From assembly GCF_003334335.1 (NCBI RefSeq), contig NZ_QOWQ01000061.1: a DNA stretch of 13,768 bases; one strand, given 5' to 3'. Positions 1-13,768 of this stretch are shown in pieces. The position numbers were made by a program, and so were the translations under genes. Position 1 is the stretch's first letter, and each line of letters opens with the position of its first letter. Below the pieces are notes generated by a model. It saw nothing but the letters and a program-made list of their open reading frames with translations, did no database searches and was not told where the DNA came from. The stretch comes from Escherichia coli (GTDB taxonomy: Bacteria > Pseudomonadota > Gammaproteobacteria > Enterobacterales > Enterobacteriaceae).

Positions 1-71
1 TGGTTGATACTGTTTTTGTCATGTGAGTCACCTCTGACTGAGAGTTTACTCACTTAGCCGCGTGTCCACTA

Positions 72-431
72 TTGCTGGGTAAGATCAGTGCCTGGCACAC
101 GCGTTTGATGGAAGACGGCGTTCAGGCAATGCGCGATTATCTTGCCGGACTGGATATCGCTTCGCCAGAGCATCAGGTTCTGATGAACGTAACAGCAAAA
201 AGCGAGGTCGCTCCGTCAATTATCAAAGAAAATCTCTCATTACACTTAACTCATACGGTGAAATGGACTGAATCTCTCGATACATTTCTGAATATGCCAA
301 CCCCGGTAGCTTTCCTTGAAATAAGTAATAAGCCCTATTTGGGGAATATGTTAAATGATTTTGCTGGCGTGGATCAGCAACGAGTTATGCATTGTCGTAA
401 AGCATTTAGTGATGCAAAGGTATTCAAATGA
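72..431 (+). CDS. Malonyl-CoA:ACP transacylase (FabD)-like acyltransferase, C-terminal fragment only (possible truncated gene or pseudogene)
   Basis: Translation aligns by eye to the C-terminal third of E. coli FabD ([11 protein letters not shown]...HTVKWTESL vs FabD SAPFHCALMKP...PVQWTKSVEY). The frame has TGA stops at 24-26 and 39-41, so no full-length acyltransferase can be encoded here. ORF-track start is TTG at 72; first in-frame ATG is at 108; no clear SD for either. Stop overlaps the next start (ATGA at 428-431). Confidence 0.4.
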
Positions 432-1414
432 TTCCTGATTATTTAACTTTTATTCGCTTTCAGGATAAACGAAATCTGATATACATTTATGCTATTGGAC
501 TTATTCTGATAGGCTTTTATTGGAAGAATGCAGGGTTTACTTTTCCATCAGAGGATATTGGTGTAGTTAGTGGGATTCTGGCTCTGGTGCTGTATAATTT
601 TATTTTTGATCTCAAGGCGTACTGGGCTTATAAATGCGTCACGAAGAATATCGATTTTTCGTGGTTTAAGAAAAAGCAGAACCACAAAATAGAATTATTT
701 CTTACACAACCTCTGGTGGCAGGATTTCTGTCGTTAATCATGTTGAGTGCAATGAGTTGGGGGCTATACCAGCTTCTACCCTCGTTATATGCGCTGTTCC
801 TGATTTCGTTACTTGGGCCGTTGGTCATCTTTCTGCTGTTTCGGATGATCCGCACCAGTTATGTCAAGCAGGTCGCTATTTCAGTAGCGAAAAAAGTAAA
901 ATATAAAAGTCTGACTCGCTATGTGCTGCTTTCGGTGTGCATCTCAACGGTTGTTAACCTGCTTACTATCAGCCCGTTGCGTAACAGTGATTCTTTTGTG
1001 ACAGAGGGGCAGTGGTTAACGTTTAAATCGATAATTGCATTGCTCATTCTTTGTGGCGTAGTGTTGGCGATTAATCTGTTTTTTCTGCGCTTCTCCAAGC
1101 GGTACGCTTTTCTGGGCAGGCTTTTTTTGCAGGAAATCGATCTGTTTTTCTCCAGTGAAAATGCGTTGTCGACCTTTTTTGCCAAGCCGCTTTGGCTTCG
1201 GTTATTCATATTGCTGGTTATTGAAGTGATGTGGATTACGCTGGTGTCGGTATTGGCAACGCTTGTAGAATGGCGGATTTGGTTTGAAGCCTATTTTTTA
1301 CTCTGCTATGTACCGTGCTTAATTTACTATTTTTTCTATTGTCGATTCCTCTGGCATAACGATTTTATGATGGCATGTGACATGTATTTCCGTTGGGGGC
1401 ATTTTAATAAGTGA
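428..1414 (+). CDS. Polytopic integral membrane protein, function unknown
   Basis: 328-aa ORF with multiple long hydrophobic segments typical of transmembrane helices (e.g. [91 protein letters not shown]). Translationally coupled to the upstream ORF. Visibly AT-rich. No family recognised. Confidence 0.6.
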
Positions 1415-1573
1415 GGAAGTGATAGGAAGTGACCAGATAATACATATATGTTCTGTACTCTCTTGCGCATTTTGATTGTTGACTGAGTAACCAGACAGTT
1501 GATGTGCACGATTTCCCCTCGCCCTAACAGACGTGGGCGGGGGCACCCGGTGTGTGCAATATACGAAAAAAAA

Positions 1574-1601
1574 GCCCGTACTTTCGTACGAGCTCTTCTT
1601 T
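1574..1601. terminator. Hairpin flanked by an A8 run on one side and a T-rich run on the other; possible bidirectional intrinsic terminator
   Basis: Stem GCCCGTAC (1574-1581) / GTACGAGC (1586-1593) with one mismatch, loop TTTC, preceded by AAAAAAAA (1566-1573) and followed by TCTTCTTT. Read on the minus strand it is a hairpin followed by U8, the stronger terminator orientation. Confidence 0.4.
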
Positions 1602-1636
1602 AAATATGGCGGTGAGGGGGACCGCCTGAAATAAAT

Positions 1637-1664
1637 CTGACTTAATCCAGGGGTGTTATATAAT
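1637..1664 (+). promoter_or_regulatory. Candidate sigma70-like promoter upstream of the integrase gene
   Basis: -35-like CTGACT (1637-1642), 16-bp spacer, perfect -10 TATAAT (1659-1664), about 115 bp upstream of the int start. Sequence match only, no expression evidence. Confidence 0.25.
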
Positions 1665-1780
1665 TTCATTATAAACAATGTATTACACTTTTTGTTGTCC
1701 GATATTATCTAATGTATTCTTAGTGAAGCGAGAGACTAATGGCATACTGGATGGCATACCAGAGTGACGGGAATTAGCGT

Positions 1781-3169: not shown

Positions 3170-4987
3170 TCACTCCTGCTGAGACTGAATTATTCCTAGT
3201 GCGTCATAAATCAGTCTTCTGCGTAGTTTATTGTTTTTATCTGCACCATATAACATAAATATATTTTCAACTTTTTCTTCAGGTGTTCTGAGATAATGGA
3301 TAAGAAAGGTTATCATTCCAACACAATGGAATAAAGTGAATCCATCAAACAGGCTTATCAGGTTTCCTTTTTTTTCCCGTGTTGTAAGTATTTTTTCGCG
3401 GGTAAGAATATTTGCCAGTTCATGGGGGGCTGATATGTTTCTGCTGTCTATAATGTCATTTATTTTACCAAGGGCTATATCAACTTCCTGTAATAGGTTA
3501 TTTATCATAGCTGAGTGAATGTTATTGGTTTCATGTTCCTGACAGTTTATGAACTTATAAATCATTGAGTTATACAGAAATATTACTCTTCCTAATAAAT
3601 ATGTGTTTGTGTCATTTTGAAGACAGGACTCTGGGTATTCGTGATCCAGTGAAATAAGGTTAATGGACTCGCCCTGATAAGTCATAAAATAATTGATGTC
3701 ATTTAATAATGCTCGGATATTTACATGATTTTTACTGAATTTTATTTTAAATGCTATCTTTAGTATAGCAAACGCGGCAATGATAAATCCAAAAGGTAAT
3801 TTCTCATAGTTCAGTTTATTGATGGTGCGATGAACACTTTCAGTCTTTCCTGAAGTAAGTTGTCTCAAACAGTTAACAAATTCTGTATAGCCATTTAAGA
3901 CATAATGGCATGAAGAATCTTTTAAAGAGTTTTCTATGTTTTGTAATGTGACGCCGTTGTTCAATGTATAAATGTAACCGCCAAAGACAATGTTTTCAAT
4001 CTCAACGACACAATTTATTGTTTTTTGTTCAGGATAAAGATAAATATCAGAAATACTATAGTCTCGTATTGCGTCAATGGCATCCCACGATAATGCACTG
4101 TCAATTTTCAGTGTATAAAATGGTGAGTTCTCATTAGGAAAGTAATATATGTATTTGTTCAGTATATTCATTACATCTATTGGGTTGGTTAAATATAATA
4201 ACTGGCATTCATATTCTGAAACTTCTCTTTCGCTTATCAGCATTTTATATAAAGTTGCCAGGGTGCTTGTTAATGAAGTTCGTCTTTCGAAAGCCAGTAA
4301 TATAGTGAGATAATAACATGCAACCTGAACTTTATCTAAGTCAGAAATTATTTTTTCCTTGTCTTCATTACTTAAATAAAGCAGATGTTTACAGGTTTCT
4401 TTGCATGTGTTGATAGTTGCGATAAGTTTTGTTTTTCCTGGTGTACTGTTTTTGCGAATATTACGAATGAATTCATATACGCCATCAAAGATATCTTTGA
4501 AATGCGCATTCGCTGGCGTGTATCCGGATAAACATAACTTAACGTAATTTCGCAGATATGTCCTTGCAGCATGATATATATCATCCTCATTATCCGGTAT
4601 CTGAGTGAGAAAAGAATGAATATGATAGTAAAATGCCATCTCATTATCCGGGCGATATGTGTTCCTGATGTCGAGTGCGAGAATCATTGGTACAATGTCA
4701 TTAAAATATTTTTGTTTTATTATTTGATGTGTTTTGTCTGTAAAAACAGAATAGTGCATTAGCTTAACATAGAGATCTTCATATCTCCTAAATATAACTT
4801 TTCGTTGTTCTTTACTCAATACTTGTTCTTTATCAATAATGTTTATTAATTCATCAAACATGTCGCCCAGTGAATGTTGATGTGAGGAAAAATTTTTAAT
4901 ATTTCGGATGTCACGGCTATTCTGGTTTTTAGCCAGAACACCAAAACATGAAAAGACATCATACATTATAGTGATAAAATTATACAT
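3170..4987 (-). CDS. Hypothetical protein, 605 aa, no recognisable family; AT-rich orphan cargo gene
   Basis: Long uninterrupted minus-strand ORF. Strong SD (AAGGAGA) 5 nt upstream of the ATG at 4987 (minus-strand sense). Codon usage markedly more AT-rich than int or the 1083-aa gene (by eye). One predicted hydrophobic helix (KLPFGFIIAAFAILKIAFKI). I recognise no catalytic motif. Confidence 0.8.
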   Translation of the reverse strand: MYNFITIMYDVFSCFGVLAKNQNSRDIRNIKNFSSHQHSLGDMFDELINIIDKEQVLSKEQRKVIFRRYEDLYVKLMHYSVFTDKTHQIIKQKYFNDIVPMILALDIRNTYRPDNEMAFYYHIHSFLTQIPDNEDDIYHAARTYLRNYVKLCLSGYTPANAHFKDIFDGVYEFIRNIRKNSTPGKTKLIATINTCKETCKHLLYLSNEDKEKIISDLDKVQVACYYLTILLAFERRTSLTSTLATLYKMLISEREVSEYECQLLYLTNPIDVMNILNKYIYYFPNENSPFYTLKIDSALSWDAIDAIRDYSISDIYLYPEQKTINCVVEIENIVFGGYIYTLNNGVTLQNIENSLKDSSCHYVLNGYTEFVNCLRQLTSGKTESVHRTINKLNYEKLPFGFIIAAFAILKIAFKIKFSKNHVNIRALLNDINYFMTYQGESINLISLDHEYPESCLQNDTNTYLLGRVIFLYNSMIYKFINCQEHETNNIHSAMINNLLQEVDIALGKINDIIDSRNISAPHELANILTREKILTTREKKGNLISLFDGFTLFHCVGMITFLIHYLRTPEEKVENIFMLYGADKNNKLRRRLIYDALGIIQSQQE

Positions 4988-5127: not shown

Positions 5128-5890
5128 GGTGATGCCTTCTGACGATAGATTAATGTTGTATTCTATTGGTATCTGGAGACCATATGGCAACAGTTACAGT
5201 ATATTCTCCCCGCTGTAATTCCTATAAAGTGTACCGTTATGATCACAGCACCTCAGATCATGAGCGTTTCCAGTGCTAATCCTGCAAACGTGTATTTCAA
5301 CTGAATTACATCTACGAAACCCGAAAACCAGGCATTAAAGAGCAAATTGTTGAAATGGTTCATAACGGAGCCGGGGTTCGCGATAGCTCCAGAACGCTGA
5401 AGGTGGATATCAACACCGTCATTCTCACTTTAAAAAACGCTCACCACGTAAAGTAACCATATCTCCAGCCGCCAGTGTCGATGTGGCACTTATCTGTGAA
5501 CTTGATGAACAATGGAGTTTTGTCGAAAACAAAGCTCGTCAGCAGTGGCACTGGTACGCGTATAAGACCAAAGCTGACGGTGTGCTGGCTTACACTTTTG
5601 GTCCTCGCACTGATGAAACATGCCGTGAGTTGCCGGAATTCCTGAAGCCATTCTCCGCAGGCATGATAACCAGAGACAACCGGAGCAGTTATACCAGAGA
5701 AATGCCACAGGATAAGCATCTTGTCGGCAAGATATTTACCCGGCGCATTGAGCGCAACAATCTGACACTTCGTACTCACATCAAACGACCTGCCCGGAAA
5801 ACGATTTGCTTTTTACGCTCCCTGGAAATTCACGAAAAGCCATTGGTTCATTTATCGAAAACACATGTACTACTGACAGGAGTCATTACC
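5128..5890 (+). mobile_element. IS1-family insertion sequence, about 763 bp, probably inactive
   Basis: Left end GGTGATGCC... at 5128 and right end ...GGAGTCATTACC at 5879-5890 match IS1 terminal inverted repeats. Internal insA/insB-like ORFs with the conserved A6C frameshift motif (5432-5438). Element length matches IS1 (768 bp). No clean 9-bp target-site duplication seen. Confidence 0.8.
5184..5456 (+). pseudogene. insA: IS1-family insA with an in-frame premature stop
   Basis: Translation MATVTVYSPRCNSYKVYRYDHSTSDHERFQC*SCKRVFQLNYIYETRKPGIKEQIVEMVHNGAGVRDSSRTLKVDINTVILTLKNAHHVK aligns to IS1 InsA, but an in-frame TAA at 5277-5279 falls inside the zinc-finger region. Confidence 0.75.
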
Positions 5891-5920
5891 AGGGCCTCTT
5901 TTGCTGTTTTTTTGCCATGA
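5483..5920 (+). CDS. insB: IS1-family InsB-like transposase segment; reading frame runs past the right inverted repeat
   Basis: Translation (ICELDEQWSFVENKARQQWHWYAYK...TRRIERNNLTLRTHIKRPARK...) aligns to IS1 InsB ([26 protein letters not shown]...[21 protein letters not shown]). Frame is -1 relative to insA, as in IS1. The ORF continues 30 nt beyond the IS end at 5890, so the native stop appears lost. Confidence 0.7.
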   Translation: MALICELDEQWSFVENKARQQWHWYAYKTKADGVLAYTFGPRTDETCRELPEFLKPFSAGMITRDNRSSYTREMPQDKHLVGKIFTRRIERNNLTLRTHIKRPARKTICFLRSLEIHEKPLVHLSKTHVLLTGVITRASFAVFLP

Positions 5921-6957: not shown

Positions 6958-7310
6958 GTCTGAATAGCAGCTATTTTCGCTATTGTAGCGGGATTTGCTG
7001 CTATTTTACTAACCCATTAATGAAAAGAGAGGCTTTTATGTGCTTACTTGCACCAGAAAATCCTTATCCGATATATGCACTACCACCGCTGGTGAGAAAT
7101 GCAATAATTGAAACTCAAAAAAATACACAGGCACCTTTGGCTATGGTGGCAACATCCGCATTAACAGCGATCTCAATTGCCTGTCAGAATCAGATTGACG
7201 TATGCAGACCTGGAAATTTACATGGGCCTGTTAATCTTTACTCTCTGATTCTGGCTGATTCCGGTGAAAGGAAAACGACCGTGGATAAAGTGTTTATGAA
7301 AGCATTTTAT
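6958..7310 (+). repeat. Direct repeat copy 2: the intact promoter-proximal and 5' region of the yfjI-like gene
   Basis: Partner of copy 1 at 6478-6830; this copy is continuous with the long ORF starting at 7020/7038. Confidence 0.7.
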
Positions 7311-8177
7311 CTCAGGGATGAAGCCCTGGCGGAAGAATACGCGAAACTGGTTGAGAATTACAGTACAGAAAAGGAAATATGGGAGCAAAAACAAAAAGCG
7401 CTGGAATCAAAATTTCATAAAGAGATTCGTGCCGGTAAAGATTACAAGGCAACAGAATCAGAGCTTGAAACGCATCTGAATAAACCTCCTGTTCCGCCGC
7501 AGATACGTCGAACAATTTTTAATGAGACAACGATAGAGGGAATGTTAAAATATTACTCCGATAGCAATCGCTCTTTTGCTCTTGTATCCAGTGAAGGGGG
7601 GGTAATTTTTGACAGCCGGGCCATGAGTAAACTGGGAATTATTAACACTTTGTGGGATGGAGGTTCTCTTTTCATCGACAGGAAATCATCTCCCGGAATT
7701 AATTTGAAGGAGCCAAGACTGACGATATCGGTGATGATTCAGCCTGATGTTTACCACAAAGGTTTTTGTACGCGAAAAAAAGAAATTGTGAAAACGTCAG
7801 GACATCATGCAAGGTTTTTGATGTGTCAACCAACATCAACGCAGGGGACAAGGATAATAACCGGAGATAATTATTCATCACAGTATCAGGATTTGTTTGA
7901 AGAGAGGATCAATGAGCTTATTGATGAAAGTCTGGCGATGAGTGGTGAACGACGTTGCCTTCACTTTTCTCCTCAGGCTGCCAGAATCTGGACGGATTAT
8001 TACAATGATGTGGAATCGAAGCTGGGGGGATTGGGGCCTTTAAGACATTGCCGGGAATATGCTGCTAAAAATGCAGAGTATATGGCAAGACTGGCAGGAC
8101 TTATTTACCATTCGAGCGGGGGAGATTTCCCCTTACACTGCAGAAATGGCGAGAGAATTAGCAATATGGTACGGTAA
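7020..8177 (+). CDS. yfjI-like (DUF3987-type, putative replication-associated) protein, N-terminal 385 aa; frame interrupted near the 3' end
   Basis: Long ORF in the position occupied by yfjI after alpA in CP4-57-type islands. SD-like AAGAGAGG precedes the internal ATG at 7038, the more likely start. The reading frame continues in another frame (8059-8463) after a G5 tract. DUF3987 assignment is from genomic context and memory, not a search. Confidence 0.7.
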   Translation: MKREAFMCLLAPENPYPIYALPPLVRNAIIETQKNTQAPLAMVATSALTAISIACQNQIDVCRPGNLHGPVNLYSLILADSGERKTTVDKVFMKAFYLRDEALAEEYAKLVENYSTEKEIWEQKQKALESKFHKEIRAGKDYKATESELETHLNKPPVPPQIRRTIFNETTIEGMLKYYSDSNRSFALVSSEGGVIFDSRAMSKLGIINTLWDGGSLFIDRKSSPGINLKEPRLTISVMIQPDVYHKGFCTRKKEIVKTSGHHARFLMCQPTSTQGTRIITGDNYSSQYQDLFEERINELIDESLAMSGERRCLHFSPQAARIWTDYYNDVESKLGGLGPLRHCREYAAKNAEYMARLAGLIYHSSGGDFPLHCRNGERISNMVR

Positions 8178-8463
8178 TGAGTATGTGCGGTTGTCTAATC
8201 CGTTAACTTTTGACAACTCTGCCCTGACCGTACCTGTGCGACTCATTCCAGAGGAGCTTGAACTTTTCAACTGGATAAAAAGCTATTGTATTGAGAAGGG
8301 GATCCTCTGTATGAAAAAAAATGACATTTTACAGCGTGGTCCGAACCGTTTCCGGAAAAAGGATAAAATCAACTGGTTACTGGATTTACTGTATGAACAA
8401 AACAGAGTTGTACCGGTTATTGAGGGAAAAACGTTGTGTGTCGCACCTAACTTTGACCTCTGA
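8059..8463 (+). CDS. C-terminal segment of the yfjI-like protein in a shifted frame
   Basis: Overlaps the previous ORF by 119 nt in a different frame; no independent RBS. Combined length (about 480 aa) is what I expect for a yfjI-family protein. Confidence 0.55.
   Translation: MLLKMQSIWQDWQDLFTIRAGEISPYTAEMARELAIWYGNEYVRLSNPLTFDNSALTVPVRLIPEELELFNWIKSYCIEKGILCMKKNDILQRGPNRFRKKDKINWLLDLLYEQNRVVPVIEGKTLCVAPNFDL

Positions 8464-10497: not shown

Positions 10498-13768
<3,271 letters not shown>

Follow-up and report, generated by a model that had tools for sequence, protein, structure and literature searches.

A probable IS3-associated deletion scar carrying a truncated malonyltransferase gene and an intact ycdU in Escherichia coli

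Why does the last third of an acyltransferase gene, its reading frame still open, lie against an intact gene for a membrane protein? This arrangement occupies the start of the window, by which we mean the whole 13,768-nucleotide stretch of Escherichia coli DNA that was analyzed. The original prediction viewed it as possibly what a rearrangement had left of an accessory operon for biosynthesis or export, and comparison with other genomes supports that view: a 15-gene operon is intact in E. coli O157:H7, and an IS3 element replaces 31.7 kb here. We conclude, with a probability of about 0.9, that an IS3-associated deletion between dgcT and the tRNA-Ser gene serX left this region as its right-hand scar, at a site formerly occupied by a biosynthesis and export operon.

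The acyltransferase remnant, the pseudogene ymdE', lies at positions 88 to 431 on the plus strand and corresponds to the last 344 nt (nt 599 to 942) of a 942-nt gene for a FabD-like ACP S-malonyltransferase, as judged from TIGR00128, RefSeq, and comparison with O157. Its complete codons run from position 90 to the TGA at 429 to 431 and encode 113 amino acids that open with A-W-H-T and are collinear with residues 201 to 313 of the intact 313-amino-acid O157:H7 enzyme; 36% of the protein is left, in agreement with the predicted C-terminal third. The predicted resemblance to FabD is likewise backed by alignment, with codons 90 to 428 matching TIGR00128 (fabD) at E = 2.3e-9 (37.1 bits, profile positions 197 to 264 of 290). 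The intact O157:H7 enzyme matches the same model over 260 residues at E = 1.8e-52 (178.7 bits). Both scores fall below the equivalog cutoff of 260.9 bits, and because this holds for the intact O157 protein, we consider that protein a dedicated paralogue rather than the housekeeping FabD. Like other proteins of the FabD type (TIGR00128, Pfam Acyl_transf_1), the intact O157 protein has both the GHSxG serine motif and the His motif, whereas the copy in the window, a C-terminal fragment of 113 codons, lacks the nucleophile. The catalytic His motif (the FabD His201 region) is kept, as AWHTRLM at positions 90 to 110 in the window and GAWHTRLM in O157; the nucleophile elbow, which is GHSVGE in the O157 enzyme and lies upstream of residue 201, is missing from the window together with everything before it. 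RefSeq labels the fragment "ACP S-malonyltransferase, incomplete, missing N-terminus." Given the established chemistry of FabD, we infer that ymdE' cannot be an active transacylase, because it has lost its serine nucleophile along with the entire N-terminal subdomain.

Upstream of the remnant, positions 1 to 87 belong to an IS3 that lies on the minus strand and form its left end, identified by comparison with the full element, and the terminal inverted repeat ends, on the plus strand, in ...GGGTAAGATCA. This segment includes the first seven codons of the transposase gene orfA (minus strand, ATG at 22 to 20). Only 87 bp of IS3 are inside the window, and the length and ends of the element were measured in other genomes: over 120 bases, the terminus agrees at every position with that of the complete 1,258-bp IS3 of strain ETEC4090. 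Where genomes match the window at 100%, the RefSeq annotation is [quoted passage not shown] and the CDS ends at window position 22. The original prediction had noted stop codons upstream of the fragment, at 24 to 26 and 39 to 41. Translation confirms that both are present in the frame of the open reading frame at 72 to 431; however, both lie within the IS3 terminus, and the gene remnant starts only at base 88. The stops are IS3 sequence, not gene decay.

The membrane protein gene, ycdU, lies at 428 to 1414 on the plus strand and encodes an intact inner-membrane protein of 328 amino acids, with 100% identity over 100% coverage to cluster P0001, "protein YcdU [Escherichia coli]," which has 2,498 member sequences. 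Hydropathy indicates about eight hydrophobic segments, and together with the positive-inside pattern predicts about eight transmembrane helices with both termini inside, so the homology and topology checks agree with the polytopic membrane protein that had been predicted. The gene is also AT-rich, as had been predicted, with a G+C content of 40.5% (34 to 46% in sliding windows). Its ATG at 428 to 430 overlaps the ymdE' TGA at 429 to 431, which confirms the ATGA overlap (428 to 431), and a putative weak Shine-Dalgarno-like motif, AAGG at 417 to 420, lies 7 nt 5' of the ATG. No sigma-70-like promoter was found on the plus strand of positions 1 to 430, and over the window, promoter-like and terminator-like sites were not above chance expectation, the tRNA gene scan returned none, and the Rfam scan returned no family at the gathering score. 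ycdU is an intact orphan, severed from its operon promoter. The predicted translational coupling is seen only as an overlap of four bases, and since the remnant has no evident start site, coupling in the truncated state is doubtful.

What the remnant once belonged to can be seen in O157:H7, where the full-length malonyltransferase gene and ycdU, with the same ATGA overlap, close a same-strand operon of 15 genes that resembles type II FAS/PKS systems and includes export functions; strain KV7 also has the full-length enzyme followed by ycdU at the end of the operon. The operon is part of O-island 47 (OI-47), which in E. coli O157:H7 EDL933 comprises 31,727 bp, z1528 to z1556 (PMC8565820). Its biosynthetic part encodes AcpS, a FabG-like reductase, a FabZ-like dehydratase, an ACP, a GcvT-like protein, a FabF-like ketosynthase (KS) fused to a second KS-like domain, and a divergent KS. 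The export part consists of a LolD/LolCE-like ABC exporter and a LolA-like carrier. In addition, there are three unknown proteins, and the dedicated FabD-like malonyltransferase and then YcdU come last. Among the unknown proteins, those of 462 and 317 amino acids had no Pfam match, and these two and the one of 218 amino acids had no NCBIfam match; the 462-amino-acid protein is a probable outer-membrane beta-barrel. The SDR of the operon matches the flexirubin FlxB model, below the cutoff of that model.

Aryl-polyene, flexirubin, and xanthomonadin clusters of Gram-negative bacteria combine type II FAS-like enzymes with genes for LolA-like proteins and exporters. Compared with these known clusters by description, the OI-47 operon likewise has a dedicated ACP, KS, KR, and DH along with LolA-like and exporter genes, and by analogy this combination suggests an outer-membrane lipid product. 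The operon differs in that its exporter is an ABC transporter of the MacB/LolCDE type, in that it adds the GcvT-like protein, the fused double KS, the probable outer-membrane barrel, and YcdU, and in that no ammonia-lyase or aryl-activating enzyme was seen in OI-47-type operons of O157, Klebsiella, Mixta, and Enterobacter. A literature search by EDL933 locus tags returned unrelated papers only, and searches with spelling variants of "O-island 47" and with the gene combination found no characterization of the operon or its product.

We mapped the flanks of IS3 onto O157:H7 to define what was lost. The deletion junction, where IS3 meets GTGCCTGGCAC, falls at positions 87 to 88 of the window. In the genomes that match at 100%, the 1,258-bp element borders, on its far side, on sequence 3' of dgcT, 10 bp after the stop codon of that gene, so that a single IS3 replaces 31,741 bp of O157:H7 sequence, from 10 bp past the dgcT stop to nt 598 of the malonyltransferase gene. 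Besides the first part of that gene, 25 other complete genes, which in OI-47 separate dgcT from the malonyltransferase, are missing: an EAL protein, the GrvA regulator, fimbriae, a two-partner secretion pair, and 13 operon genes (AcpS, KR, DH, ACP, KSs, ABC, LolA-like, and outer-membrane barrel included); only the last 344 nt of the malonyltransferase gene are left in the window, with IS3 and dgcT upstream in place of the 13 operon genes. The element is flanked by TTT on the dgcT side and by GTG in the allele of the window (hereafter the short allele) or GGC in a sister allele (the long allele). A 3-bp target duplication is thus absent at these flanks, which indicates a rearrangement after insertion. 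The long allele has the same left junction and a right junction 185 bp further out, for a deletion of 31,556 bp; with 185 bp more retained beside the same left junction, it implies that the state of the window arose in at least two steps. These could have been deletions beside the terminus of IS3; alternatively, two IS3 copies could have recombined first, with an IS-adjacent deletion of 185 bp as the second step. The order of steps and the mechanism are not readable from the end state, given that two-IS3 recombination and IS-adjacent deletion leave an identical scar.

A fixed IS end, loss of the flank, the absence of a target duplication, and nested endpoints are all features shared with IS-mediated adjacent deletions, described for the IS3 family and classically for IS1, although here both intramolecular transposition and homologous recombination between two IS3 copies are possible. 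There is a natural precedent in strain HS-01, in which IS3 lies between a truncated pgaC and the last 46 bp of ycdU. There is also an experimental one, an "IS3-mediated" deletion of 26,518 bp that extends from the same IS3 through ymdE to pyrC (PMC8611074).

We determined how widespread these alleles are by searching 5,426 complete E. coli genomes. The fragment and ycdU were present together in 2,668 of them, the IS3 junction in 2,195, and the intact N-terminus in 390 (approximately 7%). Of the part that the window lacks, about 727 genomes retained only nt 414 to 599, which makes their remnant 185 bp longer, and about 1,500 had the short remnant as in the window. Together, the two nested IS3 junctions account for approximately 40% of the complete genomes. 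Matches at 100% to the window are found among E. coli genomes, K-12 derivatives match its positions 89 to 1414 at 100%, and with the same sequence recurring in thousands of complete E. coli genomes, none of the observed features is due to chance.

Three other histories of the junction deserve to be weighed, and we give each of them next to no credence. The window ends within IS3 and, taken alone, is compatible with a plain insertion of the element, in which case the N-terminal two thirds of the acyltransferase would be found on its other side. This reading is refuted by the far-side flank and the census, unless the source genome is unlike all of its 100%-identical relatives: those relatives have the dgcT 3' flank beyond IS3, the flanks TTT and GTG form no target duplication, and the missing 598 nt occur only in the approximately 390 genomes with an intact operon or, in part, in the long allele. 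An assembly or sequencing artifact, in which a frameshift or indel splits a full-length gene, is refuted just as firmly. The identical junction recurs in about 1,500 independently assembled complete genomes, K-12 derivatives included, RefSeq calls the gene a partial pseudogene, and extending the region upstream by way of matching genomes, a check that the original prediction had proposed, led into IS3 and then dgcT, where neither a full-length gene in another frame nor a sequencing indel is present. Finally, OI-47 has classically been considered an O157-specific island relative to K-12 (PMC8565820), as would be expected if the K-12-type arrangement were ancestral and OI-47 had been inserted in the O157 lineage, completing the gene by coincidence. 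The continuity of the gene refutes this history, since an insertion cannot make 199 in-frame N-terminal codons for a pre-existing C-terminus; furthermore, the full-length enzyme and YcdU end this operon in several genera as well as in distant Proteobacteria, and IS3 sits exactly at the breakpoint.

The ymdE'-ycdU locus and its truncation by IS3 are already known. In K-12 MG1655, ymdE (b1028, a pseudogene) and ycdU (b1029) occupy the same locus in the order pgaABCD-dgcT-IS3-ymdE'-ycdU (dgcT is also called ycdT), and the literature gives the dgcT-IS3-ymdE-ycdU order of K-12 likewise. Goldstone et al. (2016, PMC4951805) described ymdE as foreshortened by IS3, with a 945-bp homologue elsewhere. 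The two backgrounds differ downstream: in the window, ycdU is followed by an OI-48-type island at serX, whereas in K-12, serX and ghrA come directly after ycdU. The fragment in the window is a catalogued pseudogene scar and has little import by itself; checking it removes a false lead and documents a deletion mechanism along with its frequencies in the population.

Could the truncated ymdE' nevertheless still function, either as a short upstream open reading frame that brings ribosomes to the ycdU start or as a truncated protein? Its open frame and the ATGA overlap are preserved in all sampled alleles. Goldstone et al. (2016, PMC4951805) inferred a possible role from the absence of frameshifts in phylogroup A, and they cited evidence of transcription in GEO. 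We nonetheless consider a function improbable. Apart from the loss of the nucleophile and the N-terminal subdomain, there is no Shine-Dalgarno sequence or obvious start upstream of the ATG at 108, and the TTG at position 72 is itself part of IS3. Among truncated alleles, ymdE' has one synonymous and four nonsynonymous polymorphisms, a ratio that cannot be distinguished from neutrality (P = 0.70, at five sites only), and low diversity in E. coli is sufficient to account for the absence of frameshifts.

A related question is whether the orphan ycdU is kept by selection for an operon-independent function, for example in envelope physiology, in the approximately 2,200 genomes that lack the operon. 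The gene is intact in approximately 97% of its carriers, even where the neighboring IS3 transposase has decayed, and it is enriched in mastitis isolates, belonging to the "mastitis-specific core" of phylogroup A (PMC4951805). Across eight operon-less alleles, its polymorphic codons comprise 11 synonymous and 7 nonsynonymous changes, which departs from neutrality (P = 0.00045) and sits uneasily with a useless orphan; the contrast between the polymorphism of ycdU and that of the fragment is not significant (Fisher P = 0.155). However, this synonymous bias may come from variation that predates the deletion or that was imported by recombination with intact-operon lineages, and one short-allele strain carries an O157-like ycdU. 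Expression of ycdU in K-12 is very low, with RNA counts of 53 and 64 (PMC10294691). Moreover, approximately half of E. coli genomes are without ycdU, natural and laboratory deletions have no obvious cost, and in every other organism examined the gene is found only inside the operon. On balance, maintenance by selection seems unlikely. Associations of ycdU or ymdE in K-12 or mastitis strains should not be read as evidence of function.

The native setting of YcdU is more informative. In all eight contexts considered (O157, Klebsiella, Mixta, Enterobacter, and four distant metagenomic members), a gene of the YcdU family is the last gene and directly follows an Acyl_transf_1 gene, and the order KS...Acyl_transf_1-YcdU is common to Klebsiella, Mixta, Enterobacter, and the distant members, the last of these at 15 to 23% identity. 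This E. coli "y-gene" is thus the obligate last gene of a conserved FAS/PKS-like operon, beside a dedicated malonyltransferase. The family is tiny and uncharacterized: Pfam returned only a spurious single-helix match of YcdU to Ycf12, NCBIfam returned no match, the PDB holds no fold relative of YcdU and gave no sequence match at E <= 1 in a profile search, and Foldseek against AFDB50 found only family members and uncharacterized proteins. The AlphaFold2 model of YcdU (pLDDT 86.6) is all-helical. We considered a Cys/His/Asp site in the C-terminal W-H-x-D...C-D-M-Y-x-R of Enterobacterales YcdU and rejected it, as it is not conserved in distant members with the same context. Across the wide family, only M1, N34, Y68, P183, and G230 are invariant, and judging from the sequences, YcdU is probably not an enzyme.

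These observations allow a tentative proposal for the native role of YcdU, one that we put forward as possible and not as probable, and that rests solely on synteny, topology, and the absence of conserved catalytic residues. YcdU might be a non-catalytic part of the inner membrane whose conserved cytoplasmic and periplasmic loops act with the malonyltransferase or the ACP machinery and with the MacB/Lol-like exporter, in which case it would handle a lipid-like product en route to the outer membrane. The stronger version, in which YcdU represents a new kind of inner-membrane component of a sporadic proteobacterial envelope-spanning lipid/polyketide system and the orphan has been kept by selection for an operon-independent role in approximately 2,200 genomes, strikes us as a long shot by comparison. 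The context in which to study YcdU is O157:H7, Klebsiella oxytoca, or Enterobacter instead of K-12. In Klebsiella, Mixta, and Enterobacter, the malonyltransferase and YcdU genes are approximately 10 to 15 nt apart, in contrast to the ATGA overlap found here.

We examined the plus-strand reading frame that closes at position 431 of the window, which ends in ...AKVFK* and carries stop codons at 24-26 and 39-41. Over its 113 complete codons (90-428), the frame aligns with positions 197-264 of the 290-position fabD profile TIGR00128 (E = 2.3e-9), bearing out the FabD resemblance that the original prediction had proposed. The predicted ATGA overlap is likewise seen in the ORF listing, where it is shared by the plus-strand ORFs 72..431 and 428..1414 (ycdU, 328 aa). 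The first base of the gene remnant, referred to as ymdE', is exactly position 88. Positions 1-87 are the left terminus of an IS3 element (minus strand). Genomes that are 100% matches to window 1-1700 carry a full element of 1,258 bp whose end is identical to these bases; RefSeq annotates it as an IS3-family transposase (programmed frameshift), with the CDS end at window position 22. The two stops that had been predicted in frame are thus present, but they belong to IS3 rather than recording decay of the gene. Extending upstream in the matching genomes, as had been proposed, places IS3 and then dgcT before the remnant, in the order efeUOB-phoH-pgaDCBA-dgcT-IS3-remnant-ycdU. K-12 derivatives match window 89-1414 at 100%, and the literature gives the identical order for K-12; this is the K-12 ymdE/ycdU locus.

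In O157:H7, the gene is a full-length 313-aa ACP S-malonyltransferase (942 nt) with the same overlap with ycdU, and the two genes close a long same-strand operon. Family searches assigned the upstream genes to AcpS, an ACP, a reductase resembling FabG, a dehydratase resembling FabZ, and a GcvT-like protein; to two ketosynthase (KS) proteins, one of 852 aa that joins a FabF-like KS to a second KS-like domain and a divergent one of 407 aa; and to a LolD-like ATPase and a LolCE/FtsX-like permease. Pfam assignments from related-genus contexts added a TP_0789/LolA-like protein. No family assignment was found for three of the operon proteins. For one of these (462 aa), a moderate AlphaFold2 model (pLDDT 64) has approximately 18 antiparallel strands, and its top PDB hits are outer-membrane barrels throughout (OccD2, AlgE, and MOMP among them; TM-scores approximately 0.45 to 0.55), which supports a predicted outer-membrane barrel at the level of fold class only. 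Between dgcT and the operon, O157 has a fimbrial operon, a two-partner secretion pair, and genes for an EAL-domain protein and a winged-helix regulator. Together with the operon, these make up O-island 47, for which a size of 31,727 bp (z1528-z1556) and the presence of the regulator GrvA have been reported (PMC8565820).

The deletion endpoints were obtained by placing both flanks of IS3 on the O157 sequence. The left flank stops 10 bp past the dgcT stop, and the right flank enters the malonyltransferase gene at its nt 599; 31,741 bp have therefore been replaced by one IS3. This agrees with the earlier interpretation of an operon remnant disrupted by rearrangement. IS3 is flanked by the triplets TTT and GTG, which do not form a 3-bp target duplication, and a simple insertion is thereby excluded. 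A longer allele, exemplified by 2013C-3264, has an identical left junction but keeps 185 bp more of the gene (176 codons, IS3 joined to GGCGGTTAAAGG, 31,556 bp missing). Because the two alleles share their left junction and differ by 185 bp, the state in the window needs at least two events. These could have been deletions bordering the IS3 end; alternatively, two IS3 copies could have recombined, with an IS-adjacent 185-bp loss afterwards. The end state fits both pathways alike. In HS-01 (L002 3623-6046), the same IS3 copy lies between a truncated pgaC and the last 46 bp of ycdU, which indicates that further deletions have occurred in nature on both sides of IS3, and a laboratory evolution study reports an "IS3-mediated" loss of 26,518 bp that starts here, takes in ymdE and ycdU, and reaches pyrC (PMC8611074). 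Both are precedents for deletion adjoining this very IS3 copy. The IS3 transposase is a pseudogene in EH41 (L017 286-1434) and VTB96775v (L019 87-1249), frameshifted in one and with an internal stop in the other, yet the adjoining ycdU is intact. This decay makes the insertion look old and suggests that it is now partly immobile.

Across 5,426 complete E. coli genomes, the fragment and ycdU are carried by 2,668, and the IS3-fragment junction of either allele by 2,195. Scored by the presence of 80% or more of its N-terminal 599 nt, the intact gene occurs in 390 genomes, mainly O157:H7 but also strains such as KV7, ETEC1738, and PapRG-06-5. The long remnant (nt 414-599 only) accounts for approximately 727 genomes and the short, window-type remnant, by difference, for approximately 1,470 to 1,550. 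Several dozen have other rearrangements, such as IS1 insertions, and the locus is wholly absent from about half.

FabD enzymes form an acyl-serine intermediate by means of a Ser-His pair. In the intact O157:H7 protein, GHSVGE is the serine-nucleophile motif and GAWHT the histidine motif, whereas malonyltransferase coding in the window starts at A-W-H-T, so the nucleophile and the whole N-terminal part are gone. Judging from known FabD chemistry, the fragment could not be an active transacylase. It has no evident start site: TTG 72 lies within IS3, and ATG 108 lacks a Shine-Dalgarno sequence. The plus strand of 1-430 yielded no promoter-like site. Among seven truncated alleles, one synonymous and four nonsynonymous polymorphic codons fit neutrality (P = 0.70), although these five codons are a small number. 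The remnant is a pseudogene. Goldstone et al. (2016; PMC4951805) already noted the foreshortening of ymdE by IS3 and the 945-bp homologue in other phylogroups, and speculated that ymdE may keep a function; our data lean against this. Overall, the original observation is confirmed and its interpretation supported, but the pseudogene scar and orphaned ycdU had been described and are not new. Beyond the literature found, we add where exactly the deletion ends on either side, the nested pair of alleles with their frequencies, the place of the YcdU family as the obligate last gene of a conserved, uncharacterized operon, and the family's lack of any recognizable fold relative.

As predicted, ycdU is AT-rich (40.5% G+C; 34 to 46% in sliding windows) and encodes a 328-aa polytopic membrane protein, with approximately eight hydrophobic segments and Lys/Arg concentrated in alternate loops, in line with an N-in/C-in topology. 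Among E. coli YcdU sequence clusters, the most common one has the same sequence as the window protein. The family is small: a search of 5.8 billion proteins returned 114 clusters, all Enterobacterales, and a profile search of 1.84 billion returned only 71 representatives, including distant members of 335 to 370 aa. Foldseek recovered family members from Providencia, Winslowiella, Paraburkholderia, Verminephrobacter, Aquipseudomonas, and Desulfatitalea (15 to 23% identity, TM-score 0.77 to 0.88). In all eight genomic contexts examined, the gene comes last, directly after an Acyl_transf_1 gene, in a shared KS/ABC/FtsX/TP_0789 cluster with unrelated downstream neighbors each time, a pattern that strongly supports a function of YcdU together with this operon. 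In a metagenomic contig with a distant homologue (L012, P0134), neither the TP_0789/LolA-like gene nor the probable barrel gene is found between permease and malonyltransferase, yet Acyl_transf_1 and YcdU still close the cluster, which suggests a tighter linkage within this pair than for the export genes. Only M1, N34, Y68, P183, and G230 are invariant across the wide family, and the His/Cys/Asp-rich C-terminal motif of Enterobacterales is not conserved, which makes a catalytic role unlikely. We tentatively propose a structural or substrate-handling role in the inner membrane, where YcdU might bridge the cytoplasmic synthase and the Lol-like exporter.

Two observations suggest that the orphaned ycdU may still be useful: the gene is intact in approximately 97% of carriers, and eight operon-less alleles have 11 synonymous and 7 nonsynonymous polymorphic codons (per-site ratio 0.18; P = 0.00045 against neutrality). 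However, ycdU and the fragment do not differ significantly in this respect (Fisher P = 0.155), and some of the variation may be older than the deletion or recombinational; one short-allele strain carries an O157-like ycdU. Moreover, ycdU RNA in K-12 is very low (53 and 64 normalized counts; PMC10294691), and the gene is dispensable, having been lost in natural and laboratory deletions. We consider a retained independent function improbable.

Depending on the strain, the ycdU-serX spacer lacks a 137-nt "RtT sRNA" element or has one or two copies of it (L002 6243-6560, L003 6220-6356, and L016 3019-3155); the window has none (no Rfam hit). The 14-bp repeat TGGCGGTGAGGGGG (1607-1620), which occurs once in the window, is the last 14 bp of the tRNA-Ser gene serX; the window itself contains no tRNA gene. 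Together with the P4-type integrase gene that follows (1781-2983), it marks the left edge of a genomic island of the OI-43/48 type, which has integrated at serX in the manner described for O157:H7 (PMC3064760). Adjoining the integrase, a minus-strand 605-aa ORF (3170-4987; "hypothetical" in RefSeq) has no NCBIfam or PADLOC match and is low in G+C in its 3' region (33 to 37%). An IS1 transposase remnant lies at 5483-5920 (NF033558, E = 2.6e-35). ORFs 7020-8177 and 8059-8463 overlap and occupy the place of a single 478-aa YfjI-family gene in ETEC4090; the window copy is probably frameshifted. A plus-strand 1,083-aa ORF (10498-13749) matches the PADLOC model MkoA of the Mokosh anti-phage system (E = 0), over model positions 1-1025 of 1607 only, with weak matches to PglW/MAD6-type kinases as well. 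Matching genomes part from the window near 13692, where one has an IS21-family element, so this MkoA-like gene may be truncated. RefSeq annotates the region as an "AAA domain-containing protein" beside a TOTE primase-domain protein.
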